Shown here piece by piece: positions 19,227 to 52,306 of a DNA stretch of 64,000 nt. Position 1 is the stretch's first letter; the number at the start of each line of letters is the position of its first letter. The translations under genes were made by a program, and so were the position numbers. The notes under the pieces were generated by a model. That model was not told where the DNA came from. It ran no database searches and worked only from the letters and a program-made list of their open reading frames with translations. The stretch is from Candidatus Magasanikbacteria bacterium RIFOXYB2_FULL_38_10 (GTDB taxonomy: Bacteria > Patescibacteriota > Patescibacteriia > Magasanikbacterales > UBA10003): the NCBI GenBank assembly GCA_001783145.1, contig MFQT01000016.1:3796-67795 (forward strand), read 5' to 3'.

Positions 19227-19309
19227 AAAAAATTAAATTTTTAAATTTTAATAACAAATTTTGTAGATAAATTGGTTAAACAGCGCAAATTGAGGGCGAA
19301 ATAAAAAAA

Positions 19310-20992: not shown

Positions 20993-21001
20993 AAATAAAA
21001 A

Positions 21002-30568: not shown

Positions 30569-30575
30569 AAATTAT

Positions 30576-30647
30576 GGCTCCGTAGTTCAATGGATAGAAC
30601 GAGGGACTTCTAATCCCTAGATCAAGGTTCGATTCCTTGCGGAGTCA
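30576..30647 (+). tRNA. tRNA-Arg (anticodon TCT)
   Basis: Cloverleaf parsed by eye. Acceptor GGCTCCG/CGGAGTC, D-stem GTTC/GAAC, anticodon stem AGGGA/TCCCT with loop CTTCTAA, T-arm CAAGG-TTCGATT-CCTTG. 72 nt with no encoded CCA. Confidence 0.85.
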
Positions 30648-30860
30648 AGAAAAAAAGCTCATTAATTTATGGGCTTTTTTTGTCTTTTTAAAAAATTTTT
30701 CAAAAAATTAGCAAAACTTACTTGACTTGTGGAAAACTCTGCGATAAAATTTATAGTGGATTGACGAAAAAAAATGAAAAGAGACATTATTGATCGCTAC
30801 CGGAGGAAGCAGATCACAAATTCTAATCCGCAAAACAAACAACTTACCTTTTTGATAACG

Positions 30861-35511: not shown

Positions 35512-37050
35512 ATGAAAATTTGGCAAAAGCAAAATTTACTTCTGCTTCTGTTTTTTTTAATCGTGGCTGTCTATTTTAGCCTGCTTCAAGGATCGCCTCA
35601 TTTTGTCGATCCCGATTCTTTTTATCATGCCAAAATGGGGTTTTTAATGCAAAAAGATATAATCATTAAAAACTTCCCTTGGATTAAATTTGCGCCTTTT
35701 ACTCAAAATTTTACCGACCATCAATTTATTTATCATTTATTACTAATACCTTTCACTTTCTTTTTTTCACCCCTTTTAGGCACTAAAATAGCCGCCATCA
35801 TTTTGGCTGTAACGGCTTTTGCAATTTTTTATTTTTTCTTAAAAAAATGGCAAATAAAATATCCTCTTTTTTATATTCTCATTCTTTTAACATCCATTTC
35901 TTTTGTTTTTAGAATGAATTTGGCCAAAACTAGCTCCCTTTCTTTAATTATTCTTCTTTTAACGCTTAATTTTATCTGGCAACGCCGCTTTATCCCCTTA
36001 TTTTTAGCTTCTTTTGTTTATGTTTGGTGCTACGGCGGCTGGGGAATGCTTTTAGGGCTTATTTTTAGTCTAACACTGGGTGATTTAATTATTAATAAAA
36101 AAATCATTGGGAGTAACATTTTAGCAATTTTACTGGGACTGCTGGCCGGGATTATTATTAATCCTTATTTCCCCCATAATATTCAATTTTACTGGCAACA
36201 AGTGGTGCAAATAGGCCTGATTAATTATAAAGACCAAATAGCCGTAGGTATGGAATGGTATCCCCCGGATATTTTAAATTTTCTGGGCAGTGAAATTTTT
36301 ATATTCTTACTGGGGATATTGGCTCTTTTTTTATTTTTTATAAAAATTAAGACAAAAAAAAATAATAATTTAGAGGATGAGAGATCTCTCCACAAAATTT
36401 TTTCCAAAATCATTGGCTTATTTATTTTTGCCGGTCTGCTTTTTGTCCTAACTTTAAAATCCCAACGCTTTATAGAATATTTCGTACCTTTTAGTGTTTT
36501 AGCTTGCGCCTTTTTAATAAATTTTTCTTTGCCCAAAAATTTTTCCTTAAAAGAATCACTATATTTTTGGCTTACTAAAAATAAATATCTTAATAAAGCT
36601 TTTTTAGTTTATTTTTTAGCCATTATGGTTGGTTTTTTTTCTTTAAACAGCTTAAAATTAAACCAACAATTTACCTCGCGTTATAATTGGAACTATTTAA
36701 AAAATTCTTCCGCTTGGCTTAAAGAAAATACACCACCAAAAACAACTGTTTTTCACACCAGCTGGGCAGACTGGCCAATGCTCTTTTATCATAATTCACA
36801 AAATACCTATTTAAGCGGCCTAGATCCTACCTTTTTTTATTTAAAAGATAAAAATTTGTATAAAGAATGGATACAAATAGGCAATGGTCAAATACAAGAT
36901 AAATTAGATGAAAAAATTAAAAAAAATTTTAGCGCTAATTGGATTTTAATCAAGAACAATGAGATAAAGCTGTTAAAAGCAATCAAATCAAATGACAAAT
37001 TTTCTTTAGTTTACCGGGATGATGAAGCTCAAATTTTTTTTCTACGTTAA
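35512..37050 (+). CDS. large polytopic membrane protein, GT-C-type (PMT/ArnT-like) glycosyltransferase candidate
   Basis: About 12 TM segments with an acidic first-loop motif (HFVDPDSFYHAKMG) resembling the DxD/DE loop of GT39/GT83 enzymes, plus a C-terminal soluble domain. Confidence 0.4.
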   Translation: MKIWQKQNLLLLLFFLIVAVYFSLLQGSPHFVDPDSFYHAKMGFLMQKDIIIKNFPWIKFAPFTQNFTDHQFIYHLLLIPFTFFFSPLLGTKIAAIILAVTAFAIFYFFLKKWQIKYPLFYILILLTSISFVFRMNLAKTSSLSLIILLLTLNFIWQRRFIPLFLASFVYVWCYGGWGMLLGLIFSLTLGDLIINKKIIGSNILAILLGLLAGIIINPYFPHNIQFYWQQVVQIGLINYKDQIAVGMEWYPPDILNFLGSEIFIFLLGILALFLFFIKIKTKKNNNLEDERSLHKIFSKIIGLFIFAGLLFVLTLKSQRFIEYFVPFSVLACAFLINFSLPKNFSLKESLYFWLTKNKYLNKAFLVYFLAIMVGFFSLNSLKLNQQFTSRYNWNYLKNSSAWLKENTPPKTTVFHTSWADWPMLFYHNSQNTYLSGLDPTFFYLKDKNLYKEWIQIGNGQIQDKLDEKIKKNFSANWILIKNNEIKLLKAIKSNDKFSLVYRDDEAQIFFLR

Positions 37051-37077: not shown

Positions 37078-38667
37078 ATGAAACGTCAAGAATGGATTTT
37101 TATCTCTATTATTTCCGGACTACTAATTATTATCACCGCCGTCCCCTATCTTTACGGTTGGCTGATGACCCCTCCCAATTATTCTTTTTTGGGCAACGGA
37201 TTCTTTAACTCCCACGACAATCATGTTTATTATGCTTATATAGAACAGGTCAAGGCTGGTCATTTTTTATTAAAAGACGTCTTCACATCGGAAACACAAA
37301 AACCATTTTTAAATATATTCTGGTTACTGGCCGGATTGCTGGCCAGCTTTTTTCATTTAGGACCAATTTTTACTCTTCATTTTTTAAGAATAATTTTAAT
37401 TCCGCTTTTTGTTATAATAGCTTACAAATTTGCCTTGTTAGCTTATGAAAATGATGCCAAAAAAGAATTAAAAATAAGGTTAGCAATTTTGTTTTTATTT
37501 TTTACCGCCGGATTTGGCGGTTTAATTTGTTTATTTAACAAAAATTTTTCCTCACCTTTGGAAGTTTGGTGGCCGGAAGCCTATGCTTTTTTAAGCAGTT
37601 ATTTTTCACCTCATTTTATAGCTTCCTGGACCTTATTATTACTCTCTTTTTATTTCTTAATTAAAGGGTTGAAAGAAAACAGTTATAAAAAAATTTGTTA
37701 TGCGGGTCTCTTTGGGCTTTTTTTAATTCAATTTCACACTTTTTATTTAGCTTTAATCGCCCCCGTAAGTTTAATTTTTCTTATTTACTCTAAAAATTTA
37801 ATCAAGGATGCGGTTAAAAAAATAATTTTGTATAATTTATTTTTTGTTCCGGCCGTAGCCTATTATTTTTTTATGATTGCCAGTGATGAAGTGATGGGGC
37901 AAAGATTATTTAATAATTTAATGCTCACTCCTAATTCACCGACTAAAATTATTTTAGCCTTTGGCTTAATCATCCCCTTAGCCATAATAGCTTTTTTAAA
38001 TTTGCTTAAAGAAAAAAATAATTTAGCAAAAATTTTCTTAAATATTTGGTTTATCAGTGTGCCATTTTTAATACTCTCTAAATTACCTTTCGAAAGAAGA
38101 TTGATTGAAGGGTGGCAATTTCCAGCTATAATCTTAGCCGTGGATTCAATTTTTCTCATTAAAAATAAATTTGCGCCCTTTAAAAAAATATCTGCTTTAA
38201 TTTTTAACAGACTAACTTTTTTCTTAATATTTATTTTTCCACTTATTTTTATTTATTTTATTTTATTTAATGTCTATTATAATCCCGGGGAAAGGCAATT
38301 TTATCTACCTAATGAAGTAAAAGATTCGCTGGTCTGGTTAAAAAATAAGGGAACTTACGATGATATTGTTTTATCTTCCACTTACACCGGACTGGCGGCC
38401 GCTTTTATGGCGGATAAAACTGTTTTTATTGGGCATGGTTTTGAGACTCTTGATTCAAGAAAAAAAATGAAACAGATGGCATGGTTTTTTCAAACCAACA
38501 CAGAAGACGATTTAAAAAAAGAAATGCTCAAAAATTGGAATATTAAGTACTTAATTTTTGGTCCTTATGAAAAGGCGCTCAATTCAATCTATGAACCGGA
38601 TCAAAAAAAATATTTAACAAAAATTTACAGCCAAAAAGGAGTAGAAATTTACCAAACTGCCAATTGA
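37078..38667 (+). CDS. second large polytopic membrane protein, GT-C-like
   Basis: Architecture matches the upstream gene (multi-TM core plus C-terminal globular domain), so likely a paralogous glycosyltransferase. Confidence 0.4.
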   Translation: MKRQEWIFISIISGLLIIITAVPYLYGWLMTPPNYSFLGNGFFNSHDNHVYYAYIEQVKAGHFLLKDVFTSETQKPFLNIFWLLAGLLASFFHLGPIFTLHFLRIILIPLFVIIAYKFALLAYENDAKKELKIRLAILFLFFTAGFGGLICLFNKNFSSPLEVWWPEAYAFLSSYFSPHFIASWTLLLLSFYFLIKGLKENSYKKICYAGLFGLFLIQFHTFYLALIAPVSLIFLIYSKNLIKDAVKKIILYNLFFVPAVAYYFFMIASDEVMGQRLFNNLMLTPNSPTKIILAFGLIIPLAIIAFLNLLKEKNNLAKIFLNIWFISVPFLILSKLPFERRLIEGWQFPAIILAVDSIFLIKNKFAPFKKISALIFNRLTFFLIFIFPLIFIYFILFNVYYNPGERQFYLPNEVKDSLVWLKNKGTYDDIVLSSTYTGLAAAFMADKTVFIGHGFETLDSRKKMKQMAWFFQTNTEDDLKKEMLKNWNIKYLIFGPYEKALNSIYEPDQKKYLTKIYSQKGVEIYQTAN

Positions 38668-38674
38668 TTTAATT

Positions 38675-39382
38675 ATGTCTTTAATCAACATTACAATTCC
38701 TGTTTTTAACGAAGAAATTATTTTAGAATCCAGTCTTAAAAAATTATCTGACTTTTGCGCTAAAAGTTTAAAAGACGACTGGTTTATGGTGGTGGTTAAT
38801 AACAATTCAACGGATGCCACAGCTTTAATTTGTAAAAGAATATCTCAAAACAATACCCGCATTAAATGCCTTAATCTGCCTCAAAAAGGCAAGGGCTTGG
38901 CCATTCAGGAAGGTTGGCAAAGTTTTTCCGCTGACTATTACATTTTTATGGATGCTGATTTAGCCACAGATTTGGAGGCCTTGCCAAAAATGATAGAGGA
39001 ATTAAAAAAAGGAGCCCCTGCAATAATTGGTTCACGCCGCTTGCCCCTTTCCCAAGTAGAAAGATCCGTATTACGCGATCTTGTTTCTTTAACTTATTTA
39101 AAAATAGCTAATTTAATGCTTAACCTTAAGTTAAGCGATTTAGCCTGCGGTTTTAAGGGAGTAAACAACGAAATTAAAGAAAAAATACTGCCCAAGATAA
39201 AAGACAGGGCTTGGTTTTGGGACACAGAAATGCTTTTTTGGGCCAAACGAGCGGGATTTAAAATAAAAGAAATCCCGGTCATTTGGACCGAGACTCCTGA
39301 TCAAAAAAGAAAAAGCAAAGTGGGAATTTTAAAGGTGGGTTTTAAAAATTTTCTGTCACTGTTTAAAATCCGCTATTTATAA
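38675..39382 (+). CDS. GT2 polyprenol-phosphate glycosyltransferase (Dpm1/GtrB-like)
   Basis: ITIPVFNEE...VVVNNNSTDAT...FMDADL is the classic GT-A fold DxD of dolichol/polyprenol-phosphate mannosyl/glucosyltransferases. Confidence 0.75.
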   Translation: MSLINITIPVFNEEIILESSLKKLSDFCAKSLKDDWFMVVVNNNSTDATALICKRISQNNTRIKCLNLPQKGKGLAIQEGWQSFSADYYIFMDADLATDLEALPKMIEELKKGAPAIIGSRRLPLSQVERSVLRDLVSLTYLKIANLMLNLKLSDLACGFKGVNNEIKEKILPKIKDRAWFWDTEMLFWAKRAGFKIKEIPVIWTETPDQKRKSKVGILKVGFKNFLSLFKIRYL

Positions 39383-39843
39383 AATGATTGGGTTTCCGCA
39401 GGAAGAATATCAGACGCTGCTGTTTCCGGAGCATAGGTTGTACTGCGTAAAAGAAAAAGAGTAATTAATAAAACAATACCATAAGCGGCGAGGACAATAA
39501 CAAGTCCGATGACGCCGTTTTTTAAATATTTCTGAGCCTCTTCTACTTTTTTAGACTCTCCGGCAGAGGTCATCCATAAAAAACCGGCGTAAACAATCAA
39601 GCCCAAGAAAATTATACCCACGATTCCCAAAAAAACTTTAATCAGATTAGCGACTGTTTGTCGCGGGTCTTGGGTGCTCAAACCAGCCACATTGGTTGCC
39701 GCGCTAAATTGTTGATTAATAATATTGATTACTTTATCGCTCCCTCCTGATTCGTCGGCTGAAACATTTTTTACAAAAAAAGTATTTATAAAAAAGCTTA
39801 AGGCTAAAAAAAGAGGAAAAAATAAAAAAAATATTTTTCTCAT
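39373..39843 (-). CDS. TrbC/VirB2-like pilin-family small membrane protein (array member 9)
   Basis: Signal peptide followed by a variable region, then the conserved hairpin VFLGIVGIIFLGLIVYAGFLWMTSAGESKKVEEAQKYLKNGVIGLVIVLAAYGIV. Confidence 0.6.
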   Translation of the reverse strand: MRKIFFLFFPLFLALSFFINTFFVKNVSADESGGSDKVINIINQQFSAATNVAGLSTQDPRQTVANLIKVFLGIVGIIFLGLIVYAGFLWMTSAGESKKVEEAQKYLKNGVIGLVIVLAAYGIVLLITLFLLRSTTYAPETAASDILPAETQSFYK

Positions 39844-39853
39844 AATTTTGTAA

Positions 39854-40270
39854 TTAAACGGGATTCAAATAAAAAATTGCCAAAACTCTGACCAGAACAA
39901 AACGGGTAATACCCGCAGCGGCTAAAACAATAATTAAGCCGATAATTCCATTTTTTAAATATTTTTGGGCATCCTCCACTTTCTTAGGCTCTCCACCGGC
40001 TGTCATCCATAAATATCCGGCAAAAACCACCAAACCTAAAAAAACTACACCCAAAAGACCCAGAACCGCATAAATAACAAATCCTATAATCTCAGACAAG
40101 GTCATTTCATTAGCCTGTCCATAACCACTTTCTCTTTGCACATTTTGCAATAAAGTACCAGGACCATCCACTGCAGAGCAAAAACTGCTCCAAGAAAAAA
40201 ATAGGTTGGCTACCAAACTAAAAATTAAAACCCCCCAACTAATATTTTTAAAATTAAAAAATTTAAACAT
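39854..40270 (-). CDS. TrbC/VirB2-like pilin-family protein (array member 8)
   Basis: Conserved block LGVVFLGLVVFAGYLWMTAGGEPKKVEDAQKYLKNGIIGLIIVLAAAGI. Confidence 0.6.
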   Translation of the reverse strand: MFKFFNFKNISWGVLIFSLVANLFFSWSSFCSAVDGPGTLLQNVQRESGYGQANEMTLSEIIGFVIYAVLGLLGVVFLGLVVFAGYLWMTAGGEPKKVEDAQKYLKNGIIGLIIVLAAAGITRFVLVRVLAIFYLNPV

Positions 40271-40278
40271 AAAATTAT

Positions 40279-40701
40279 TCAGGAGTTGTCCCCCCCCCCC
40301 CCAAATTCAATACCGCTGGCACCGGTTAAATAAAAAACTACAAAATAAGTAATAGCGTAAGCGGCTACCACAATTATTAAACCAACGATAGATCTTTTAA
40401 TTATATCCTGTGCTTCATCCACTTCTTTAGATTCACCCCTGGCTAACATCCACTTAAAACCGCCGTAAATCATTAAAATCAAAAATATCACCCCCAACAA
40501 AACTAAAGCCGCCTCAATTATACCCCCCACAACAGCTTCTAATTGTTTAGGTTCTCCGCCGTAAGCTGGTGCCAGTTTTCCAAGTTCTGTTCCGGCATTT
40601 TTTATAGTAGGGTTATCTTGCGCCAAAGCTTGCAACTGACTAAAAATAAAAAAACCGGAAATAATAAGGAAAAAACTATAAAACAAAACTTTTTTAAACA
40701 T
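40279..40701 (-). CDS. TrbC/VirB2-like pilin-family protein (array member 7) with 3' poly-G tract
   Basis: Conserved block LLGVIFLILMIYGGFKWMLARGESKEVDEAQDIIKRSIVGLIIVVAAYAI. The C-terminal ...IEFGGGGDNS is encoded by a G13 homopolymer. Confidence 0.6.
   Translation of the reverse strand: MFKKVLFYSFFLIISGFFIFSQLQALAQDNPTIKNAGTELGKLAPAYGGEPKQLEAVVGGIIEAALVLLGVIFLILMIYGGFKWMLARGESKEVDEAQDIIKRSIVGLIIVVAAYAITYFVVFYLTGASGIEFGGGGDNS
40290..40302 (-). repeat. 13-nt homopolymeric G tract (C13 on the plus strand) inside the 3' end of array member 7
   Basis: Counted directly as gtc + cccccccccc + cc. It encodes the GGGG near the stop codon. The next pilin paralog starts 9 nt downstream. Confidence 0.9.
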
Positions 40702-40705
40702 AAAA

Positions 40706-41098
40706 TTATGTTGTTACAGCGGCTACAATCCTGGTTATTAAAAATTGAGAAATGGCGTAAGCTAAAATAACCACTATTATACCAATAATAGCCATAGTAA
40801 TGGTATCTTTAGCCGTTTCCACATCTTTAGTGTCTCCTTTGGCCAGCATCCACTTAAAACCGCCGTAAATCATTAAAACAAAAAAGATTATGCCAATTAA
40901 AGACAGGGCGTAGCCGGTTAAACGCGTGACATAAGCTTCTACAGTTGAATTTTCAGACGTATTTAAGCCGGTTTTTTGAGCCGATTGATTAGTAATTTCC
41001 AAAGCATTTTTAAAATTACCAAGTTGCGCCACAGCCGGTGTTAGGATAGTTAAACAAAATAAAATTGACAAAGAAAAAACAAATATTTTTTTAAACAT
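40706..41098 (-). CDS. TrbC/VirB2-like pilin-family protein (array member 6)
   Basis: Conserved block LIGIIFFVLMIYGGFKWMLAKGDTKDVETAKDTITMAIIGIIVVILAYAI. The start is set at MFKKIF (41098) to avoid overlap with the upstream gene. Confidence 0.6.
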   Translation of the reverse strand: MFKKIFVFSLSILFCLTILTPAVAQLGNFKNALEITNQSAQKTGLNTSENSTVEAYVTRLTGYALSLIGIIFFVLMIYGGFKWMLAKGDTKDVETAKDTITMAIIGIIVVILAYAISQFLITRIVAAVTT

Positions 41099-41102
41099 AC
41101 TT

Positions 41103-41447
41103 TTATTGAGCCACAGCAAAGACATATTTAGTAATTACGTATGAGGCGGCCACAATAATAATACCAATAATAGAATTGATAATGATATCCTTAGCTTCTC
41201 CGGTTTGTTTGGTGTCGCCTCTGGCAGTCATCCACAAAAAACCGCCGTAAATCATTAAAGCAAAAAAGATCACGCCTATTAAAGACAAGCCGGCTCCCAA
41301 AATTTGCCCTACCCTGGTCTGAATAGTGCCCTCCATAGGAACACCGGCTCCCTTAGCCGTTTCTTGCAGGCCATATTGTGCCAAACAATAAGGAGCCAAA
41401 GCAAAAGAGGAAAAAATTACCGCTAACCAAGAAAAAATTTTTTTCAT
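41103..41447 (-). CDS. TrbC/VirB2-like pilin-family protein (array member 5)
   Basis: Conserved block LIGVIFFALMIYGGFLWMTARGDTKQTGEAKDIIINSIIGIIIVAASYVI. Confidence 0.6.
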   Translation of the reverse strand: MKKIFSWLAVIFSSFALAPYCLAQYGLQETAKGAGVPMEGTIQTRVGQILGAGLSLIGVIFFALMIYGGFLWMTARGDTKQTGEAKDIIINSIIGIIIVAASYVITKYVFAVAQ

Positions 41448-41718
41448 AATTTATTCGGAGATAATTGGAAATTTTGGAAAATAATTGTTTTAAATATGAC
41501 ACAGATTCTTTGCCTGCGGCTCAAGATAACGTGTAAAAAGCTGGCAATGAAACGCCTAACGATAAACTCACAACAATCAATTTCCAAAATTTCTAATCTC
41601 TTAAGGGACGGGTGCTTTAAAAAAGCCCAAAGATCTAGACTTAAGTTTCCGCTTAAGCCTTAGGCCTTAGAAACCTATTTCCAAATCTTTTTCCCGTCCC
41701 TCAAACATTTTCAAAATA

Positions 41719-42117
41719 CTATGGAGTGGTGGTTGCATTAACCAAACTGTTCACCACGAAGCTGGCAATAGCGTAAGCCGCTAAAATAATAGCCAAACCA
41801 ATTACACCATACATAATTCTCTTTTTGGCTTCGTCTGTAGCTTTTTCATTGCCTCCGGCAGTCATCCATTCAAAGCCGCCAATTAAGATAATAACCACGG
41901 CTACGATACCAAGAAGCCCCATGGCTGTTTTGATAATTGTAGCTACTGTCTGACGAACATCTTTGGTGCCAAGTCCGGTATAGGTGCCATAAGAAATACC
42001 CAAATCATTGGCATTAATAAGCCCTTGAGCTGAAGCGGCCACTGGCAAAACCAAGAGCGCCATAACAAACAGGCTGAGTCCGAAAGAAACAATTTTATTT
42101 GCGTTCATTTGATTCAC
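41719..42117 (-). CDS. TrbC/VirB2-like pilin-family protein (array member 4)
   Basis: Conserved block LLGIVAVVIILIGGFEWMTAGGNEKATDEAKKRIMYGVIGLAIILAAYAI. Confidence 0.6.
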   Translation of the reverse strand: MNQMNANKIVSFGLSLFVMALLVLPVAASAQGLINANDLGISYGTYTGLGTKDVRQTVATIIKTAMGLLGIVAVVIILIGGFEWMTAGGNEKATDEAKKRIMYGVIGLAIILAAYAIASFVVNSLVNATTTP

Positions 42118-42158
42118 CTCCCTTCTTAAAAATTTGATTTTGATTATTTATCTATAAG

Positions 42159-42674
42159 TTATTCTACCGGACAAATAGACAAGTCTTTACAAAGTCCCGG
42201 AACCAGAACACCTCTTGGGCAGGAAGCGGAAGTATCTTTAATATCAGCCGTAGTGGTAAGCTGTGAACACTGATAAACAGGATCCTGAATCACACAACAT
42301 TTAGGACCGGGGGTGCCCGTTGTCAATCCCCTGATTAAAAAATCCACTAAAAAATAACTGCTAAAAATTATAGCTAAACCCACTACCGACCATAAAAAAA
42401 CATCCCTACCTTTCTTAATTTTAGCAGGTTCACCCTGCGAGGTCAACCACAAAAAACCGCCATAAATAAAAAGTAAAAGGGCAATGGAACCACTAACGGC
42501 AATGGCTCCTTTAGCCACCTTGCCGGCAAAAGTCAAAACGCTCTGTTTGGTAATTTCTTGCTGACCCAAAGGGTTAGGAAGGCCTTGCTGTGCCCAAACT
42601 TGAGCCGAGAAACCCAAAATAAAAATTAAGGACAAGACCAAAATTATTTTTTTAATTTTTTTCTGCTGTTTCAT
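42159..42674 (-). CDS. TrbC/VirB2-like pilin-family protein (array member 3) with Cys-rich C-terminal extension
   Basis: Conserved block SIALLLFIYGGFLWLTSQGEPAKIKKGRDVFLWSVVGLAIIFSSYFLV, followed by a 6-Cys tail (KCCVIQDPVYQCSQ...SCPRGVLVPGLCKDLSICPVE). Confidence 0.55.
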   Translation of the reverse strand: MKQQKKIKKIILVLSLIFILGFSAQVWAQQGLPNPLGQQEITKQSVLTFAGKVAKGAIAVSGSIALLLFIYGGFLWLTSQGEPAKIKKGRDVFLWSVVGLAIIFSSYFLVDFLIRGLTTGTPGPKCCVIQDPVYQCSQLTTTADIKDTSASCPRGVLVPGLCKDLSICPVE

Positions 42675-42677
42675 ATT

Positions 42678-43223
42678 TTATGAGGATAAGGCGGTAAAAA
42701 CAAAATTCAAAATAAAATAACTGCTAAAAATAACAATCAAACCTATGCCGGCCCAAAGCATTGTTTGGGTGGCTTTTTTAATTTGTTCTGATTTCCCCGC
42801 AGAAGTAAGCCAAAGAAAACCGGCGTAAACAAAAAGAATAAAGGCAATAGTACCCAAAAAACCCATCACGGCCATAATAATATTGCTAATAAGGCCCTGT
42901 ACAGTTAAGCCATACAAGGGATTGACAATGGTTCCAATATTACTTGGGGAATAGGCGGCCGCGGTTTTACAATTACCCAAAGCCTCAATAAATTGAGTTT
43001 CACAATTCCTTCTGTTTTCTTCTGTCTGTGCTGGATAGCCACCTTCAATAGAGGCTGCCTGAGAATAAACTTTATCTAAACAAGCCGTATTAGCTTCTTG
43101 AGCTTTTTCGGAACAATCTTTTTCTGCGGATTTGGCCAAAGAAACAAAACTTAAATTAAAAATTAAGGCCAAAAGAAACAAAACTAAATTGACTTTAATT
43201 CCCTTTACCAAAAATCTCCGCAT
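42678..43223 (-). CDS. TrbC/VirB2-like pilin-family protein (array member 2) with Cys-containing N-terminal ectodomain
   Basis: Signal peptide, a 4-Cys ectodomain, then the conserved block FLGTIAFILFVYAGFLWLTSAGKSEQIKKATQTMLWAGIGLIVIFSSYFIL. Confidence 0.55.
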   Translation of the reverse strand: MRRFLVKGIKVNLVLFLLALIFNLSFVSLAKSAEKDCSEKAQEANTACLDKVYSQAASIEGGYPAQTEENRRNCETQFIEALGNCKTAAAYSPSNIGTIVNPLYGLTVQGLISNIIMAVMGFLGTIAFILFVYAGFLWLTSAGKSEQIKKATQTMLWAGIGLIVIFSSYFILNFVFTALSS

Positions 43224-43230
43224 AATTTTA

Positions 43231-43752
43231 CTATTTTATTTCCACGTTAATACTGCCGGTAGGTAAACTAACCGAGGTGCTTCCTCCGGCTTTAATTACG
43301 GTGTCTAAAATAAAACTTAACAAAAGCTGGGCAGAAAAAATTATAACTAAACCAATAGCCGCCGCCACCAAGGTTTCCTTACCTTTTTTAACTCTTTCCC
43401 CACCGGCCGCGGTTAAAATTACAAACCCGCCATAAATAAAAAATAATAAAGCCACACCGCCCACTACTTCAAAAGCAACATTAACTACATTAACCAAAAG
43501 CTGTAAAAAAACATTAATATTGCGGCAACCGCAGGTTTTTTCTTTAGAAGTTCCCTCAAAATAAACGCAATCGGGAAAGAACCAAGAAGGGTTGCCGGAT
43601 GAGTACAGGGGAATTCCCTTATCGTCTTTTAATTGTTTTAAATCACAAACAATCGGCTCGGTTCCTGTTTGTGCCAAAGCCTTAAAAGGTAAAGCTAAAA
43701 TAATTACCCCTAAAAAAGCAACCAGTATTCCCTTATATATTTTGCCCTCCAT
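43231..43752 (-). CDS. TrbC/VirB2-like pilin-family protein (array member 1) with Cys-containing ectodomain
   Basis: Signal peptide, a Cys-containing domain (CDLK...CVYFEG...CGC), then the block GGVALLFFIYGGFVILTAAGGERVKKGKETLVAAAIGLVIIFSAQLLL. Confidence 0.55.
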   Translation of the reverse strand: MEGKIYKGILVAFLGVIILALPFKALAQTGTEPIVCDLKQLKDDKGIPLYSSGNPSWFFPDCVYFEGTSKEKTCGCRNINVFLQLLVNVVNVAFEVVGGVALLFFIYGGFVILTAAGGERVKKGKETLVAAAIGLVIIFSAQLLLSFILDTVIKAGGSTSVSLPTGSINVEIK

Positions 43753-43754
43753 AT

Positions 43755-45158
43755 TTACATTGTTTGATTAACCCCGGCCACGGCATTCTCCACGGCTTTG
43801 CGGTAAGCGGCTGGATCATTTAAAAACTCTTTATCCAAAATATTATCAATCATTTTAATAAAATATTTATCTGCAACAGCCGCATCTTTTCCTTTATACC
43901 AAGTTTTAGCCGTTAAAAGTTGACCCGCAAAAACCGCTAGATCCGGATTTTGCATTTGAGTTGGAATAAGTTCACGCAAAGCGGTAATCTTTCCGGTTTT
44001 ATTAAGATATTTTACCACATTTTTAGGATCACTGGCAAAAAGTAAAAAATCCCAGGCTTCATTGGCATTTTGAGTCTTTTTGGAAACTGTTTCTGCCCAA
44101 AACAAACCAAAATTAACCGGTCGTTCTGGATTGATTTGCGGCAAGGACACTACATTATAATTTAATTTTGGCGCGCGAGCCTTAATAAAAGCTTGATTAT
44201 AACCATAACCTATATAAAAAGCGGCCTGCCCACGAGTAAAAGAATCCAAAGAATTAGGCATCTTGCTGTTCCAAGTATAAACCTGCTTAGTGGGCTGGGC
44301 AAAATCGGTATAAAACTGCAAGGCCTGATCTGCCGGCGGCACGGATCCGCTCCAACCGGATGGCGTTTGATTAAAAGTGGGATAACCGTTGTCGCTAGTC
44401 ATTGGTACTCCGTTTTGCATCATCAAAACAGACAAAATATCCCCCGCTCTGTCTACGTTTTGACTAGTGCCCAGAGCCGCTCCGGCTCTTAAGATATTAT
44501 TCTGTTGGTCAATCTTAGTAATCGCAATGACATCTTTTTGAAAATCAGTCCAAGTTTTGGGAGCTTCGGCAATACCCGCTTGATCTAACATTTCTTTATT
44601 ATAAAACAAAGCTAAAGTGTCTACCGACAAAGGCAGACCGTAAATCAATTTGCTGGTTTGGCCAGTCGCAGGATCAAAAGTGGGAATAATTATATTATCG
44701 GCTACTGCGCCAATATATCTATCTTGAATATTTTTAGCCGAAGGAGTGGTGACAGTTTTAATATCCACTACTAATTCTTTTTTAAGTGTTCCCTGCATGC
44801 TTTGAAAAGCCTCTTTGACCGTAGAGGGCATTGGTAAAATTTTGCTTTGATATTTTCTAAGCCAATCATTTTGAATGGAGAACATATCCGGACCTCGATC
44901 TTCAGCCAAAGCATTAAGCAATTCCTGTTCAAAGTCTTCTATTCTTAATTTACGATAATTAATGACGATATTAGGATGCAAAGCCTGATAAGCAGTAATA
45001 ATTTCACCAAAAGAATCAGAATCATCCAAAACACGCCAATAATTTAAAGTAATGGGTTTGATGGCATTTTGCTGTTCTGCGGTTAAACCTTGTTTACAAC
45101 CCAAACCGGAGGTGATTAAAAAAGAAAAGATTAAAGCAAAGGGCAAAAATTTTTTCAT
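43755..45158 (-). CDS. extracellular solute-binding lipoprotein (ABC transporter SBP family 1, sugar-type), orphan
   Basis: Lipobox (ITSGLGC), MalE-like size and pattern. No permease or ATPase gene is adjacent. Confidence 0.65.
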   Translation of the reverse strand: MKKFLPFALIFSFLITSGLGCKQGLTAEQQNAIKPITLNYWRVLDDSDSFGEIITAYQALHPNIVINYRKLRIEDFEQELLNALAEDRGPDMFSIQNDWLRKYQSKILPMPSTVKEAFQSMQGTLKKELVVDIKTVTTPSAKNIQDRYIGAVADNIIIPTFDPATGQTSKLIYGLPLSVDTLALFYNKEMLDQAGIAEAPKTWTDFQKDVIAITKIDQQNNILRAGAALGTSQNVDRAGDILSVLMMQNGVPMTSDNGYPTFNQTPSGWSGSVPPADQALQFYTDFAQPTKQVYTWNSKMPNSLDSFTRGQAAFYIGYGYNQAFIKARAPKLNYNVVSLPQINPERPVNFGLFWAETVSKKTQNANEAWDFLLFASDPKNVVKYLNKTGKITALRELIPTQMQNPDLAVFAGQLLTAKTWYKGKDAAVADKYFIKMIDNILDKEFLNDPAAYRKAVENAVAGVNQTM

Positions 45159-45166
45159 AGATAAAA

Positions 45167-46048
45167 TTATTTTATCTTTTTAATATATTCTTTAATTCCT
45201 TCGGCCAGTTCCGGACGACGCAAAGCAAAATCTAAATTAGCCTTTAAATACTCCAACTTATTGCCTGTATCATAATAGTAACTATTTTTTATCTCACAAG
45301 CATAAACGGGAAATTCTTTTTGAATCAATTTCTCTATGGCATCGGCGAGCCACAATTCTCCTCCCTTGCCCGGCTTTAAATCTTGTAAAATAGGAAAAAT
45401 TTCTCCGGGCAAAATATAAGCGCCGTGGGTGGCCAAATTAGATGGCGCTTCCCCTGCTTTGGGCTTCTCCACTATCTTTTTTATTTTAAAAATATTGTCT
45501 TCTACCGGTTCCACATCGGCAATACCATAACGGCTTAAATTTTCTTCCTCCACCCGCACCGCAGAAATTATGGCTCCGCCTTTTTTTTCATAAACATCTA
45601 CCATCTGTTTTAAACGCGGCGGATTGGCATAAATAAATTCATCACCCCACATTACGGCAAAATTCTCATCATCATCTATTAAATGGCGACAACAATAAAC
45701 GGGGGTGGCGTTGCCATAGGGCCCTTTTTGGCGAACATAAACAAAATTAGCCATTTCGGCAATATGACGCACTTCTGCTAACTCTTTTAGTTTACCGGCC
45801 TCCTCCAAACGTTTCTCCAATTCAAAAGAATGATCAAAATAATCTTCTATGGCCCTTTTATGCCAACCCGTGACAATAATAATATCTTTAATGCCGGCGG
45901 CCACGGCTTCTTCTACCACATATTGAATCACCGGTTTATCCACAATTGGCATCATTTCTTTAGGCATGGATTTGGTAGCGGGTAAAAATCTGGTGCCAAA
46001 ACCGGCGGCAGGAATAATAGCTTTAGTTATTTTTCTATGATTTTTCAT
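45167..46048 (-). CDS. galU: UTP--glucose-1-phosphate uridylyltransferase
   Basis: KAIIPAAGFGTRFLPATKSMPKEMMPIVDKPVIQYVVEEA is the canonical GalU N-terminus. Confidence 0.85.
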   Translation of the reverse strand: MKNHRKITKAIIPAAGFGTRFLPATKSMPKEMMPIVDKPVIQYVVEEAVAAGIKDIIIVTGWHKRAIEDYFDHSFELEKRLEEAGKLKELAEVRHIAEMANFVYVRQKGPYGNATPVYCCRHLIDDDENFAVMWGDEFIYANPPRLKQMVDVYEKKGGAIISAVRVEEENLSRYGIADVEPVEDNIFKIKKIVEKPKAGEAPSNLATHGAYILPGEIFPILQDLKPGKGGELWLADAIEKLIQKEFPVYACEIKNSYYYDTGNKLEYLKANLDFALRRPELAEGIKEYIKKIK

Positions 46049-46129: not shown

Positions 46130-47515
46130 CTATTTAATTTCTCTCCAAGAAATTAAATGATATTCGGTTCCCACAAAAAAGGACGGGGGAGGAGAATAAG
46201 TTAAATTAGCATCGTAATTGGTAAAAGTATTGCGATAACCTGAAACCACAGAACCTCCTTGCGTCACCCAACTCCAAGTCCAAATACCTTTAGAAATAAC
46301 ACTGCCGTAAATAGTTAAATCATTCAGAATATTACCGGAATAATAAAATCTTTGGGCACTGCCGTTTTGTGCCACTACTGCGGCATCAATTTCTAAATCA
46401 TTTGGAGAATAACGCGGAATTAAAATATCTTTTTGAGCAATTAAACCTAAGGAATCAGAGCCGTCCTTAGCCGTATAAACAATATTATTAGGAATAACAA
46501 TAGTAGTGTAAGTGTTAGGATTAACGGGAAACTTGCCTGAACCCACAGTCAAATGACCTTTAACTGTCCCCTCCACCCAAACCTTATCCTCAATAAAAAT
46601 TAAACCGTTAGCAGGATTAGCAAAGTTACCTTGTAAAGTTTCATTTTTAACATCATAGGATTCATAATGTTTCACACCATTCACATCTTTGCCATAACCT
46701 GGAGAAGGAACTGGTTTTAAAGATGTCACTTTATAAAGATCAAAGGTACTGTTGCTCTTAAATTTTATATGATAACCATAGGCTCCGGAAGAAGAACGAT
46801 AAAAGCCGTCGCTCTGCGCTCCGGTCCTGACATTGGATAAATCTATAGTAATGCCATCAAAATCAAAAGCCGGTATGGGAAATTGCCAAAAATTAGTTGG
46901 GCCTCCGGCGCCCCAAATACCCGGCTTGGTGGTATTATTGCATCCCGAACCAAAAATGGGTTTACAAACATAAGTTGGTTTAGCCGAGGTAATCGGCGCA
47001 TCAGCCGTACCATCAAACCTAATACCACCGTTGGCATGTAATTTTCCGTGAATAATTTCATTATCACCAATCCAAACATCCGAATTGGTTAAAAAAGCAA
47101 AATCAGCCAAAGAAGGAAGACCCATTCTGATTTGAACTTTTCTTTTAGTATTAGGTTGATCCAACGTATAACCGGTGGAAACAATAGTGACAACAGAAGA
47201 GCCAGTGGTCGGCGGGGTTATTTCCAAACTAAATCTGCCAATAATATTGCCATCTTTATCCAGATAATCATGAACATAGGGTCCGGGGCCGCCTGTGCCG
47301 TCCTGATAATCAGTACCACTGTGCGCCAAATGCCAGCGGTAATATTCAGCACCAGCTTCGGCAATTTGAAAGGCCTGCTCATTATTTTGATTAAAATGAG
47401 CCGCTCTGTTTTCCATCACTCCGAAAACAGCCACACCATTAAAAATGGCAGTGACGGCCATGGCTCCAAAAACCAGCGCAATCAGCAAAATATTTCCCTT
47501 TTTTTTACTCGGCAT
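46130..47515 (-). CDS. PilX-N-domain-like pilus assembly / minor pilin-associated protein
   Basis: N-terminal TM (ILLIALVFGAMAVTAIF), then QAFQIAEAGAEYY resembling the PilX_N AEAG motif, then a large Gly/Thr/Asn-rich beta domain. Confidence 0.5.
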   Translation of the reverse strand: MPSKKKGNILLIALVFGAMAVTAIFNGVAVFGVMENRAAHFNQNNEQAFQIAEAGAEYYRWHLAHSGTDYQDGTGGPGPYVHDYLDKDGNIIGRFSLEITPPTTGSSVVTIVSTGYTLDQPNTKRKVQIRMGLPSLADFAFLTNSDVWIGDNEIIHGKLHANGGIRFDGTADAPITSAKPTYVCKPIFGSGCNNTTKPGIWGAGGPTNFWQFPIPAFDFDGITIDLSNVRTGAQSDGFYRSSSGAYGYHIKFKSNSTFDLYKVTSLKPVPSPGYGKDVNGVKHYESYDVKNETLQGNFANPANGLIFIEDKVWVEGTVKGHLTVGSGKFPVNPNTYTTIVIPNNIVYTAKDGSDSLGLIAQKDILIPRYSPNDLEIDAAVVAQNGSAQRFYYSGNILNDLTIYGSVISKGIWTWSWVTQGGSVVSGYRNTFTNYDANLTYSPPPSFFVGTEYHLISWREIK

Positions 47516-48116
47516 ATTTTAAATTTCTTATCTCGGCCTTGGCATTAATAGTAATGGGCAAAGGAGAAAGTCCGGGCTTTTGATCTATCACCAGACTCAT
47601 TTGTACCATACGCACGTCTAAAACATTAATTGGAAAAGATAAAGCGGAACCAAGACCGGTATAATTTTTATTAAAATAAGAAAAAGGTTGCTGGTCGGCT
47701 GTTAAGTCATGAACCACACCGGTGATTACTTCTGTTGAATCATTATAAGATAAGGGATTGCCCGAGGGTTTGATGACTCCTTTTTTAAAAAGCGACCCCG
47801 AAACAAAATATCTTACTTTTTCCGCGTAGCTATCAGAATCAATATCACTATAGAAAGCAAAAGAAGTGGGAGTGGCTTCGGCCACCATATAAGAACCAAT
47901 GCTGGAGGCTGAGGCGTTACGTAATTCTTTAACAAAATCCGCGGCTACGCGTCTGGCTTCCTTTTGAGCCGTCAGTTGATTATAAATAATATTATTAGAA
48001 GAAAAAATGGTGCTAATGAATAAAGCGGCCACGGTAATAAACAAAATAAAAATGCCTAAAGAAACCAAAACTTCTATTAAAGTAAAACCGGAAAATTTTT
48101 TAAAAATTAAAAGCAT
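47505..48116 (-). CDS. type IV prepilin-like protein (minor pilin / pseudopilin)
   Basis: N-terminal prepilin cleavage/methylation motif FSGFTLIEVLVSLGIFILF. Confidence 0.65.
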   Translation of the reverse strand: MLLIFKKFSGFTLIEVLVSLGIFILFITVAALFISTIFSSNNIIYNQLTAQKEARRVAADFVKELRNASASSIGSYMVAEATPTSFAFYSDIDSDSYAEKVRYFVSGSLFKKGVIKPSGNPLSYNDSTEVITGVVHDLTADQQPFSYFNKNYTGLGSALSFPINVLDVRMVQMSLVIDQKPGLSPLPITINAKAEIRNLKYAE

Positions 48117-48122
48117 AAAAAA

Positions 48123-49913
48123 TTACGGGCTCATTAATACTTCCACCTGAGAGCGGCCACTGACATCGGCCGTGGTGATTACGTTTTGATAACCAGGGAG
48201 AGTTACCGTTAAATTGTAAGTTCCCGAATCTAAACCGTAAAAAAAAGATTGGCCCGGGGGCGTGCAACCCGAGGTATAACTAATGGACACTTCTGATAAT
48301 TGCGGAGAAAAATTTTGATTAGCGGTTGATAAACTTATTTTATAACGCAAAAATCTGTCACCATTATGCACTGCGGAAATATTGCTATCACTGACAGTAT
48401 AATAAGTTTCTCCGGTTCCGTCCGGACCTAAAAAATTCCAAGAACTTGGCGCCGAGGAACTGGCCGTAGCAATTTGAAATTTAATAGAATCAACTCCGGT
48501 TTGAGCTGGCTGACTTAAGGGTTCCCAAATGATATTGGTAAAATTGCTGGCTGTTCCAAAGTCAATGGTGGAGGAGATTAATTCGCCGCTCCATTGATAT
48601 TTATTGCCGATTTTTTTTAAATACAAATCACCGGCGGGGCTATTTGTTTCCACTCCTCCATCTTGTAAAAAATAGCCTGTTTCGTCTATAAAGTTTTCTT
48701 GTCCCGAACCGCCCGACCAATCTGTTTGTCTTAAATAACCGCGTCCGGTAACCAAGGAATCGCTAAATGTCCCTTTATCAATAGAAACCGCGGCGTTAGT
48801 TAAAGGAAGTTTGGTGGCGCTATCTTTAATTGTTAAAAGCAAAGAGTTGGTTGTGTGTGAATGCAAGATTACAGATAAGTTTTGAGTAGCATCGGGAACT
48901 AAAAAAACCGGCAAGGTGGGAATGGTTCCGGCCACATCGTAACTTCCGTTAGACAAATTAAAACTATAAGTGTCCCATTCCAAATTATCTAAAACTTTTG
49001 TTCCCTCACTATTGGTGGAAACGGTTTGATCATAACGGTAAACATTAGGGTTTTCACCAATCACCTTGGAGCCACTGACGGAGAAAGAAATGTTGGAAAG
49101 GCCACTGCATTGCGGATTGATAGCAGAAAAATTGATGGTAGAAATTTTATCAATGGAAAAAGAAAGATTAGTGACGGTTTGTGAAGCCACGGTAGCCAAG
49201 GGTTTGACTGGATTAGGATTATTGACAGTTTCGGGAATAGTGTAATCGGTTGTGTAGCCATTTTTAGAAACAACAACAGAATACCCCTCGGTAGAAGTGG
49301 CTATGTCAATTATTTTTAATTCCCCATTAGTGTTAGTGGTATCGGTAAGATCAACATTGGGATTAACTAAAGTATTGGTAATATGAACTGTGGCCCCAGG
49401 CACCAGCAGGCCGGAAGCATCAAAAACTTTAATAAAAAGAGAACCGTTTTGGGAATCGGCTTCCGTATTTTTAGGAGAGATTCGAGCGGTTAAAATTGTA
49501 GGCCTTACCTGTCCGCCGGTGCAAGACGAACAAAAAACACGGACCTCGGCCAATTTAAAGTCGGCCGGAGAGGTATCATTGGGAGAACCTCCGGCCAAAC
49601 CGTCAAAAGGATCATCTATATTACGGATGGTTGTTTGTACTAAAAAAGACGCTCCATTACGCAAGGTGGTAGTGGTTTGCGGCCACACCCCATTAGGCAC
49701 CCCACCAATGGTTCCGGTACTTTCATAGGGCAAATTACGTAGAGTTTCTATAACTTCATTAGCTACTTGTGTTTCCAAAACTTGCACGCGAGAAATGTAG
49801 GTGACTTTAAAAACATAAATAATCACCGCATAAACTCCGGATAGAATAACGGCAAAAATGGCAATAGAAACTAAAATTTCAATTAAAGTAAATCCTTTTT
49901 TAATCCTGGTCAT
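48123..49913 (-). CDS. large type IV prepilin-like protein with carboxypeptidase-regulatory-like beta-sandwich domains
   Basis: N-terminal KKGFTLIEILVSIAIFAVIL prepilin motif. Internal GATVHITN...TNGELKIIDIATSTEGYSVVVSKNGY resembles a CarbopepD_reg fold. Rich in T/S/N. Confidence 0.65.
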   Translation of the reverse strand: MTRIKKGFTLIEILVSIAIFAVILSGVYAVIIYVFKVTYISRVQVLETQVANEVIETLRNLPYESTGTIGGVPNGVWPQTTTTLRNGASFLVQTTIRNIDDPFDGLAGGSPNDTSPADFKLAEVRVFCSSCTGGQVRPTILTARISPKNTEADSQNGSLFIKVFDASGLLVPGATVHITNTLVNPNVDLTDTTNTNGELKIIDIATSTEGYSVVVSKNGYTTDYTIPETVNNPNPVKPLATVASQTVTNLSFSIDKISTINFSAINPQCSGLSNISFSVSGSKVIGENPNVYRYDQTVSTNSEGTKVLDNLEWDTYSFNLSNGSYDVAGTIPTLPVFLVPDATQNLSVILHSHTTNSLLLTIKDSATKLPLTNAAVSIDKGTFSDSLVTGRGYLRQTDWSGGSGQENFIDETGYFLQDGGVETNSPAGDLYLKKIGNKYQWSGELISSTIDFGTASNFTNIIWEPLSQPAQTGVDSIKFQIATASSSAPSSWNFLGPDGTGETYYTVSDSNISAVHNGDRFLRYKISLSTANQNFSPQLSEVSISYTSGCTPPGQSFFYGLDSGTYNLTVTLPGYQNVITTADVSGRSQVEVLMSP

Positions 49914-50011
49914 AAAATGATTATAACATTTTTTTTAAAGCCTGTCGCTAAAATTTATTAGTCCAATTTAAACATTAAGCAGTTTCCACGGACACGTCAC
50001 CCAAATAAAAC

Positions 50012-50036
50012 ACCGCCCAGCATTACACCGGGCGGT
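50012..50036. terminator. bidirectional hairpin terminator downstream of the cNMP-MBL gene
   Basis: ACCGCCC / GGGCGGT stem, T-rich on both sides. Confidence 0.55.
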
Positions 50037-52223: not shown

Positions 52224-52306
52224 TTTTTCTCCTGTTTTAGTTGTCAAAGTACCTTTTAAACTTAGCAAGTTTAAGGGTACATGTCAATCATTTTTAACTT
52301 AAACAA

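Follow-up and report, generated by a model that had tools for sequence, protein, structure and literature searches.

The pilins VirB2, TrbC and TraA of diderm type IV secretion systems (T4SSs) combine a signal peptide with a two-helix hairpin and a short charged loop, and conjugative pilins polymerise into helical tubes that usually contain lipid. VirB2-like pilins have been catalogued in 1,948 VirB4-positive assemblies of Patescibacteria, the candidate phyla radiation (CPR), and 441 arrays of such genes have been counted in 383 assemblies, an array being defined as 2–11 pilin genes that lie in tandem, or with one non-pilin gene between them, and share low sequence identity (mean 25%, maximum 54%) (Quinonero-Coronel et al. 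2025, PMC12102498). The only array of this kind with functional data is that of the Saccharibacterium Southlakia epibionticum ML1, where six divergent tandem PF18895 genes, SEML1_0014-0019, adjoin VirB6 and are essential by transposon sequencing (Tn-seq) (Wang et al. 2023, PMC10633639); in the single genetically tractable Patescibacterium, both the T4SS and the pilin array are essential. Reviews treat a pilus for the monoderm Patescibacteria T4SS as an open question. Here we describe nine tandem PF18895 pilin genes on the minus strand, at 39373..43752, of a 64,000-nucleotide stretch of the genome of Candidatus Magasanikbacteria bacterium RIFOXYB2_FULL_38_10, an ultrasmall inhabitant of groundwater (GCA_001783145.1, contig MFQT01000016.1, positions 3,796 to 67,795), hereafter the window, in whose coordinates all positions are given. 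We lean towards the view that these pilins are inserted by the Sec pathway and polymerised by a T4SS encoded in trans into a host-contact filament, with the product of one gene, g6, as its major subunit.

Arrays of this kind are already published, and this locus adds one more example. A previous, sequence-only reading of the window had likened the genes to a pilin family expanded in the CPR; the organism is indeed a CPR member, and the arrays of 2–11 genes were already in print (PMC12102498, PMC10633639). Like the surveyed arrays, this one consists of chromosomal PF18895/VirB2-like genes in tandem in a VirB4-positive genome; with nine genes and pairwise local identities of 26–50% it fits the published definition. 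It differs in lying at least 168 genes from virB4, in its context of genes for a solute-binding protein (SBP), a GalU-like enzyme and a family-2 glycosyltransferase (GT2), none of which PMC12102498 mentions, and in its class, ABY1, whereas the surveyed arrays are most abundant in Microgenomatia and Saccharimonadia (PMC12102498). The S. epibionticum array shares the divergent tandem PF18895 pilins but lies inside the T4SS cluster and has no SBP, while the nine genes here are away from a T4SS and behind an SBP.

More distant systems are instructive as well. VirB2, TrbC and TraA share the signal peptide and the hairpin, and the array proteins give full-length, sub-threshold matches to PF04956 (TrbC/VirB2), g6 also matching the CONJScan T_virB2 profile according to its entry in Table S3 of the survey; unlike these diderm pilins, those described here belong to a presumably monoderm cell and number nine, with external parts that are both large and variable. 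The archaeal pilins CedA1 and TedC (PMC9905601) show that VirB2-like two-helix pilins form pili where there is no outer membrane; the signal peptide of TedC is cleaved, Ced works with the type IV pilus Ups, and the system imports rather than exports. The archaeal pilins have no detectable sequence relation to the array and are encoded beside VirB4-/VirB6-like genes, usually one pilin at a time. Small hairpin proteins also occur in the conjugation systems of monoderms, namely the Mbov_0395 family (NF045849) and PrgF, but each of these is encoded by a lone gene on a mobile element, and none is known to build a pilus. Finally, the VirB2 clusters of Anaplasma and Bartonella are tandem, amplified and divergent, and have been cited as an analogy for host-range or antigenic variation (PMC12102498); those are diderm intracellular pathogens with T4SS effectors, whereas the paralogues described here are old and keep both their order and their orthology from one species to the next.

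The nine genes and the family of their products

The genes are named g1 (39373..39843) to g9 (43231..43752) and are transcribed from g9 to g1. In the direction of transcription, the array reads as follows (PF18895 and TrbC scores in bits).

43231..43752, minus strand: g9, pilin paralogue, 173 aa; PF18895 39.6; N-terminal ectodomain with 4 cysteines; directly after the SBP gene
42678..43223, minus strand: g8, pilin paralogue, 181 aa; PF18895 36.0; N-terminal ectodomain of ~75 aa with 4 cysteines
42159..42674, minus strand: g7, pilin paralogue, 171 aa; PF18895 32.1, TrbC 23.3; C-terminal extension of ~55 aa with 6 cysteines
41719..42108, minus strand: g6, candidate major pilin, 129 aa (132-aa open reading frame); PF18895 44.5, TrbC 26.8
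41448..41718, minus strand: structured intergenic RNA after g6, from folding
41103..41447, minus strand: g5, smallest of the nine pilin paralogues, 114 aa; PF18895 36.6
40706..41125, minus strand: g4, pilin paralogue, 139-aa open reading frame, probably 130 aa; PF18895 43.7
40279..40701, minus strand: g3, pilin paralogue, 140 aa; PF18895 33.2
39854..40270, minus strand: g2, pilin paralogue, 138 aa; PF18895 42.8
39373..39843, minus strand: g1, pilin paralogue, 156 aa, last gene; PF18895 41.2

Count, orientation and extent, taken from the window's list of open reading frames (ORFs), agree with what had been read from the sequence. All nine copies are full-length and have their own starts and signal peptides; neighbouring genes are separated by -23 to 41 nt, with the exception of g6 and g5 (271 nt), and g1 overlaps the 3′ end of a convergent GT2 gene by 10 nt. 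The likely true start of g4 is the ATG at 41098, which gives 130 aa beginning with MFKKIF as in g3, and that of g6 is the ATG at 42108, in agreement with the public gene call, the mechanical ORF beginning at a GTG at 42117. An alignment of the nine reveals a shared core of ~75 residues (IYGGFxWMTAxGxxxKxxxAK..IGLIIVxAAY), while the parts that flank the core fail to align, as the earlier description of mutually unrelated extensions had it. That description also held that three variable parts are rich in cysteine; these are indeed g7 (six, in the C-terminal extension), g8 and g9 (four each, in the N-terminal parts), so that the range is 4–6 rather than 4–7, and the other six proteins have 0–1. 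The cysteine-rich stretches are confined to predicted external, non-core parts.

The assignment to PF18895 (T4SS_pilin) is robust: all nine proteins score 32.1–44.5 bits against a gathering threshold of 26.6 bits, which excludes chance, and each match spans nearly the whole 71-position model. For PF04956 (threshold 27.9 bits), matches are confined to g6 (26.8), g7 (23.3), g9 (21.4) and g1 (17.3), and all four cover nearly the full-length model. The Mycoplasma family NF045849 (Mbov_0395, pilin-like, of integrative and conjugative elements) is matched above its cutoff of 40 bits by g6 (41.3); g1, g2, g3, g4, g5, g8 and g9 remain below it (20.6–37.5) and g7 has no match. The TrbC/VirB2-type family call of the sequence-only reading thus holds at the level of PF18895, membership of which is established for the nine. 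Sequence profiles are what the kinship with VirB2 rests on, and they point to relatives within the TrbC/VirB2 superfamily that are not PF04956 members by the Pfam cutoff.

Signal peptides were called from sequence pattern and hydropathy, and all nine proteins have one, as the earlier interpretation requires: a basic N-terminus and a hydrophobic segment that closes in an AxA-like motif (VSA↓D, CSA↓V, ALA↓Q, AVA↓Q, CLA↓Q, ASA↓Q, VWA↓Q, KSA↓E, ALA↓Q). Cleavage at these sites would leave an N-terminal glutamine in six of the nine products. By hydropathy, two more hydrophobic helices follow in every protein, which brings the number of segments to three, and the AlphaFold2 (AF2) model of g6 places helices at residues 3–28, 51–83 and 88–127, the predicted local distance difference test score (pLDDT) of the hairpin being >90 over residues 60–120. 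A profile of the pilin alignment found no match among solved structures even at E <= 10. The PF07963 N_methyl prepilin motif, G↓F(T/S)LxE, is present in none of the nine, whose N-termini are of the Sec type. Two other identities were tried and rejected. A holin or bacteriocin-immunity protein, named beforehand as the outcome that would overturn the pilin call, finds no significant counterpart among the nine: the only trace is Phage_holin_3_6 at E = 0.11 in g3, no stretch passes, and signal peptides are present. Pam pilins, for their part, are Ig-like, donor-strand-exchange proteins and unrelated (2026 preprint).

A T4SS that could serve these pilins is encoded in trans. Genes identical to g6 (KKR48599.1, UT86_C0004G0085) and g9 (UT86_C0004G0082) occur in Candidatus Magasanikbacteria GW2011_GWC2_40_17 (GCA_000996105.1, class ABY1, 978 kb). 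For this assembly, Table S3 of the survey lists g6 as protein 279, a VirB2 by the T_virB2 profile that is flagged as not near virB4, along with VirB4 and VirB3 (447 and 448), a second VirB4 (523) with TrsD (524) and VirB6 (527), and three proteins resembling type IV coupling proteins (PMC12102498). By these protein numbers (g6 at 279, VirB4 at 447 and 523), the T4SS is at least 168 genes from the array; the genome encodes a T4SS and the pilins are not encoded near its assembly genes (VirB4, VirB6). The rows for this assembly contain one of the nine pilins, g6, and, as far as the available part of Table S3 extends, PF18895 entries are confined to rows flagged as near virB4 (PMC12102498). On these grounds these genes probably went uncounted as an array, and the survey probably under-counts arrays remote from virB4 in general, a point that this locus brings out with one of nine genes listed.

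The candidate major subunit and a proposed filament

Several properties set g6 apart from the other eight genes. Its orthologues are 80, 73 and 63% identical in the lineages of three sibling loci (our handles L030, L032 and L034, respectively), compared with 34–65% for the other eight pilins and 70, 65 and 39% for the SBP; the nonsynonymous divergence (dN) of its core is 0.10 as against 0.22–0.38 in the other pilins; and it has 2009 detectable homologues, compared with 122 for g9. A strong ribosome-binding site, AAGGGAGGTGA (42109..42125, minus strand), is found only at g6 within the whole block and is conserved in four lineages, upstream of the orthologues in L030, L032, L034 and L036, whereas in the remaining pilin genes the ATG is immediately preceded by an A/T-rich leader, for example ATAATTTT. 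The g6 orthologues also have a conserved external C-terminal tail, xATT, which reads NAT in the window.

The 271-nt gap that follows g6 is predicted to be highly structured, with a minimum free energy of -90.3 kcal/mol (z = -6.8 relative to shuffled sequences), and comprises a long hairpin, GAGGGACGGG...CCCGUCCCUU, and a second hairpin. Behind the g6 orthologues of L030 (z -3.0) and L034 (z -8.3) there are likewise strong hairpins, and behind that of L032 a weaker one. The gap contains no clear U-tract, an Rfam scan of the window returned six tRNAs only and nothing in the gap, and the GAGGGACGGG arm is not dispersed as a repeat within the window. This structured RNA could act as a terminator, as an attenuator or as a 3′ stabiliser, and would divide the array into g9–g6 and g5–g1. 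Because g6 unites the highest conservation, the sole strong ribosome-binding site and a stable stem-loop behind it, its product is likely to be the major subunit and the other eight are likely to be minor ones.

The mechanism that we favour would run as follows. Sec-dependent insertion and cleavage of the signal peptide would leave both termini outside and the short charged loop in the cytoplasm. The T4SS encoded in trans would then draw the pilins out of the membrane and, where the cell touches its host, polymerise them into a filament or conduit that resembles a pilus. In such a structure, g6 would be the major, highly translated subunit, and the other eight would be low-abundance subunits whose external parts, which evolve faster and are in part stabilised by disulfides, could serve as tip, as adaptors or in host recognition; the MalE-like lipoprotein encoded upstream of g9 would be a dedicated partner of the pilins.

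It is important to point out what weighs against this proposal. A PF18895 pilus has never been seen in Patescibacteria, and the CPR filaments that have been solved are the unrelated Ig-like Pam pili. VirB4, VirB6 and VirD4 are absent from the 64-kb window and from the 8 kb on either side of the array in ~80 related loci; we infer the T4SS dependence of the pilins from homology only. No pilin of the array reaches the PF04956 threshold, and fold searches returned only generic helical hairpins, which do not discriminate between this family and others. The proposed role of g6 is argued from its ribosome-binding site, conservation and RNA structure. Lastly, there are PF18895 proteins that match PrgF as well, which is a component of Gram-positive T4SSs but not of a pilus, Table S3 containing an entry by the FATA_PrgF profile (PMC12102498).

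These last points are what the most serious competing explanation builds on, namely that the proteins are PrgF-like, membrane-embedded channel or accessory subunits of a T4SS whose ectodomains reach into the wall, with no extracellular pilus. Gram-positive-type T4SSs, which are kin of the Patescibacteria system, are generally devoid of pili, and the PF18895 protein caught by FATA_PrgF and the filament that has never been observed both fit this explanation. However, a channel accounts less well than a polymer with minor subunits for nine paralogues of which one is highly conserved and has a strong ribosome-binding site, the homology to VirB2/TrbC extends over the whole model, and archaeal VirB2-like 'membrane proteins' turned out to be pilins (PMC9905601). 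We therefore consider PrgF-like channel subunits unlikely, if deserving of attention, and continue to prefer a T4SS-built filament with g6 as its major component.

Conserved order and fast-evolving external parts

Sibling loci were located by way of g6 orthologues, which are 80% (L030/L031), 72–73% (L032/L033/L036) and 63% (L034/L035) identical to g6. Nine pilins each are present in L030, L031, L032 and L036; in L034 and L035 the tandem run comprises eight, with a ninth ~1.4 kb beyond, past a glycosyltransferase gene on the opposite strand, and L033 terminates within the array. For each pilin of L030, L032 and L036, the best match in the window is the paralogue at the same position, so that the loci are collinear one to one. 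Collinear orthologues across species imply that the paralogues predate the species and that their order is fixed, and in the light of these alignments the array appears as a fixed set of differentiated paralogues, ancient and ordered. On a wider scale, three position classes follow the SBP in an order that holds across at least 28 loci: those with cysteine-rich ectodomains (g9–g7), the conserved g6, then g5–g1.

The array had been taken for a hypervariable surface repertoire that might vary in copy number and order between relatives. Diversification of the external parts is real, in that dN in the non-core parts is two to three times that of the hairpin. Hypervariability overstates the case, and the order of the nine is the same in L030, L032 and L036. 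In no region does the ratio of nonsynonymous to synonymous divergence (dN/dS) exceed 1; dS is >1, and hence saturated, relative to both siblings, so that the ratios are unreliable and relative dN values alone are used. What the observations describe is a scaffold of nine roles that is fixed, with external parts that evolve fast. A locus of this kind, in which a major subunit stands out among ordered and ancient paralogues, offers a clear target for the identification of a filament.

The idea of a repertoire nevertheless deserves to be weighed in its own terms, with one or a few paralogues expressed at a time, or recombining, for the sake of antigenic or host-range variation. The faster evolution of the external parts is compatible with it, as are the varying number of pilins per locus (1–11), a mosaic g2 on one short contig, a homopolymer in g3 that could slip, and the suggestion of the survey, by analogy with Bartonella and Anaplasma, that such arrays adapt to host strains (PMC12102498). 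Against it stand nine full-length genes of one orientation, packed at distances of 3–41 nt and each with a start and a signal peptide, the one-to-one orthology and order kept across species, and the lack of any dN/dS above 1 (dS being saturated). No silent cassettes, truncated copies or invertible elements were seen at the array, and 20 kb are 99.99–100% identical among independent samples. A cassette-type antigenic variation locus was rejected on the completeness of the copies, the order kept in the three siblings and this near-identity across samples, and variation by alternate expression or recombination is, in our judgement, improbable.

Two sequence features of the array itself stand apart. 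The last codons of g3 (FGGGGDNS) contain a G13 homopolymer (40290..40302, minus strand); no other long run of G or C occurs in the window. Three independent contigs (L002–L004) stop at 40276–40288, beside this tract; L001 has G11AG instead, which is synonymous, and the tract is absent from the sibling species. One additional G would fuse g3 and g2 in frame. The second feature concerns a 1.8-kb contig (L005), which matches the window over 1446 nt with 100% identity, but whose sequence is entirely different across the 5′ half of the g2 hairpin (its nt 1–137 compared with 39947..40083 of the window); this is either a recombinant g2 allele or an assembly chimera.

Elsewhere, the pilin core occurs in other settings. 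Proteins with the core and large additional ectodomains are encoded at SBP-proximal positions (L034 8574..9527 and L008 11112..12245); one such enlarged pilin has 317 aa and 18 cysteines, and another is a 377-aa fusion with CarboxypepD_reg, a domain also found in p596, a prepilin-like protein encoded upstream of the array. A solitary PF18895 pilin gene lies beside the gene for ribosomal protein S15 in a Magasanikbacteria relative (L034 13838..14769), and the same arrangement exists in S. epibionticum (SEML1_0024-0025), where that pilin is non-essential.

The lipoprotein partner and neighbouring gene blocks

The genes on either side of the array encode a lipoprotein and putative glycosylation enzymes.

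43755..45158, minus strand: MalE-like family-1 solute-binding lipoprotein (SBP), lipobox LGC; SBP_bac_1 91.2 bits; 2 nt upstream of g9
45167..46048, minus strand: GalU-like UTP-glucose-1-phosphate uridylyltransferase; NTP_transferase 128 bits; 8 nt upstream of the SBP gene
38675..39382, plus strand: GT2, polyprenyl-phosphate-sugar-synthase-like; GT2 82.9 bits; NCBIfam neighbours PgfS, AglJ and ArnC
37078..38667, plus strand: large membrane protein of 529 aa, predicted GT-C fold
35512..37050, plus strand: large membrane protein, convergent to the array

The closest solved relatives of the SBP are oligosaccharide-binding proteins of ATP-binding cassette (ABC) importers, and no ABC permease gene lies next to its gene. 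With the SBP as query, 80 metagenomic loci (L036–L115; SBP identity 43–64%) were retrieved, and among reference genomes only two Patescibacteria homologues, L007 (40%) and L008 (31%), both followed directly by PF18895 genes. A pilin gene starts no more than 700 nt after the SBP gene, often overlapping it, in all 64 loci that have at least 700 nt of downstream DNA; pilins also follow the SBP gene of L118. Pilins per locus (1–11) were counted in the 28 loci whose downstream DNA extends to 6 kb or more. Adjacent to the SBP gene is a pilin of the class of g9, g8 and g7, ahead of the g6 class and that of g5–g1, and loci with a single pilin hold this first class. The converse does not hold, as solitary pilins without an SBP exist and the Saccharibacteria array has none. 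Among ten of the most recurrent neighbour families, checked with Pfam, there is no T4SS component, and the other recurrent neighbours are housekeeping genes. Neither the survey (PMC12102498) nor a full-text literature search mentions a linkage between SBPs and pilin arrays, so this genomic context looks unreported.

Such strict linkage raises the question of whether the SBP, rather than a T4SS, is the centre of the system, with the two-helix proteins acting as its membrane partners in uptake or anchoring and the likeness to VirB2 being merely ancestral. The 64 of 64 loci, many with overlaps or gaps of <100 nt, the loci that consist of an SBP and one pilin, and T4SS genes that are near none of these loci and at least 168 genes from this array could all be read in that way. 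Against it, two-helix proteins with large, variable external parts are unlike any known permease, the same family occurs without an SBP within the T4SS cluster of Saccharibacteria, and solitary pilins without an SBP exist. A T4SS-independent module thus seems very unlikely to us, and a filament assembled by the distant T4SS remains our preferred explanation.

A further proposal, which we put forward tentatively and regard as possible though doubtful, is that SBP-led pilin operons form a distinct and hitherto undescribed module of ABY1-type Patescibacteria in which the oligosaccharide-type SBP is translationally coupled to the ordered pilins, remote from the T4SS and often flanked by glycosylation genes. 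In the strongest form of this proposal, the SBP would itself function within the filament system, as a receptor that could pass host-derived sugars to a T4SS-built conduit or recognise the host surface. If true, the idea that the essential T4SS of Patescibacteria serves to import from the host, perhaps by way of glycosylated pilins, would gain direct genomic support.

The glycosylation genes are linked to the array frequently rather than strictly. In 23 of 51 loci, the gene immediately upstream of the SBP gene is GalU, whose product in the window scores 325.2 bits with TIGR01099 (cutoff 326.8). A GT2 homologue accompanies the array in 11 of 28 loci, where it either converges on the last pilin gene or sits within the array behind the first one. 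A confident AF2 model of the larger-numbered membrane protein, of 529 aa (pLDDT 88.7; predicted template modelling score, pTM, 0.89), matches the GT-C enzymes STT3, AglB, PglB, DPY19, AftA and ArnT with E values of 2e-9 to 7e-5. The putative route would lead from UDP-glucose via a polyprenyl-phosphate sugar to an extracytoplasmic acceptor, and the GalU, GT2 and GT-C genes may glycosylate the pilins or the surface; the pilin as acceptor is speculation. Overall, the strict linkage to a sugar-binding-type lipoprotein and the frequent linkage to glycosylation genes provide testable leads to function.

Beyond GalU, the co-oriented genes continue with a prepilin-like trio.

46130..47515, minus strand: p461, N-terminal hydrophobic helix, no family match; from sequence
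47505..48116, minus strand: p203, N_methyl (PF07963)
48123..49913, minus strand: p596, N_methyl (PF07963) and CarboxypepD_reg
49948..49920, minus strand: promoter-like site, 10/12 with TG; consensus scan only, not evidence of function
50036..50012, minus strand: terminator-like hairpin of the upstream gene; consensus scan only, not evidence of function

The PF07963 scores of p596 and p203 are 34.1 and 22.6 bits, and the trio has weak ComGF, GspJ and PilV matches. The sequence-only reading had placed the array and the prepilin genes in one operon and considered a link between conjugative-type pilins and type IV pili (T4P) unusual. The five upstream genes (p596, p203, p461, GalU and SBP) are indeed co-oriented with the array at short gaps, and a single long transcript that starts before p596 is possible. 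However, two non-pilus genes, SBP and GalU, intervene, a methyltransferase gene and another gene are inserted between trio and GalU in L032, and of the wider loci, 29 have 5 kb or more of upstream DNA and only one of these carries the trio, the remainder having no prepilin motif. The L032 insertion and the wider loci identify the juxtaposition as clade-specific and separable. Nor would T4P that cooperate functionally with T4SS-like systems be without precedent, as the pairing of Ced and Ups and the thin pilus of R64 illustrate (PMC12102498, PMC9905601).

The pilins might be assembled by the upstream T4P system or form one machine with it. The co-orientation and short gaps of trio, GalU, SBP and array, the conservation of this block in four related lineages (L030–L036) whose outer flanks differ, and the precedents just named agree with this. 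Opposed to it are the Sec signal peptides and the lack of an N_methyl motif in all nine pilins, the two genes inserted in L032, the rarity of the trio in wider loci and the absence of a prepilin motif in L007 and L008, and the position of the PilB-type ATPase gene (19310..20992), ~25 kb away. As a general rule, T4P-dependent assembly is largely refuted, and for this array we give it hardly any credence.

The PilB gene lies in a minus-strand block, 17979..21961, where it is flanked by two genes without a family match; at E <= 10, Pfam returned nothing useful for these neighbours, p461 or the two large membrane proteins. The rest of the window holds housekeeping genes, including those for UvrABC, GyrA, FtsH, MetK and GatB and two Ddl genes. 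At 50058..52268 (minus strand), a 736-aa protein combines two cyclic nucleotide (cNMP)-binding domains with a metallo-beta-lactamase-like part, in a region with a G+C content of 0.46, compared with ~0.39, and several long overlapping antisense ORFs. At 29570..30648 (plus strand), a tyrosine recombinase gene (Phage_integrase, SAM-like N-domain) adjoins tRNA-Arg(tct) and is conserved in sibling contigs; the recombinase could be XerC/D-like or mark an integration hotspot. Finally, 60005..63061 (minus strand) encodes a 1018-aa surface protein with four lamin-tail domains and a PKD domain.

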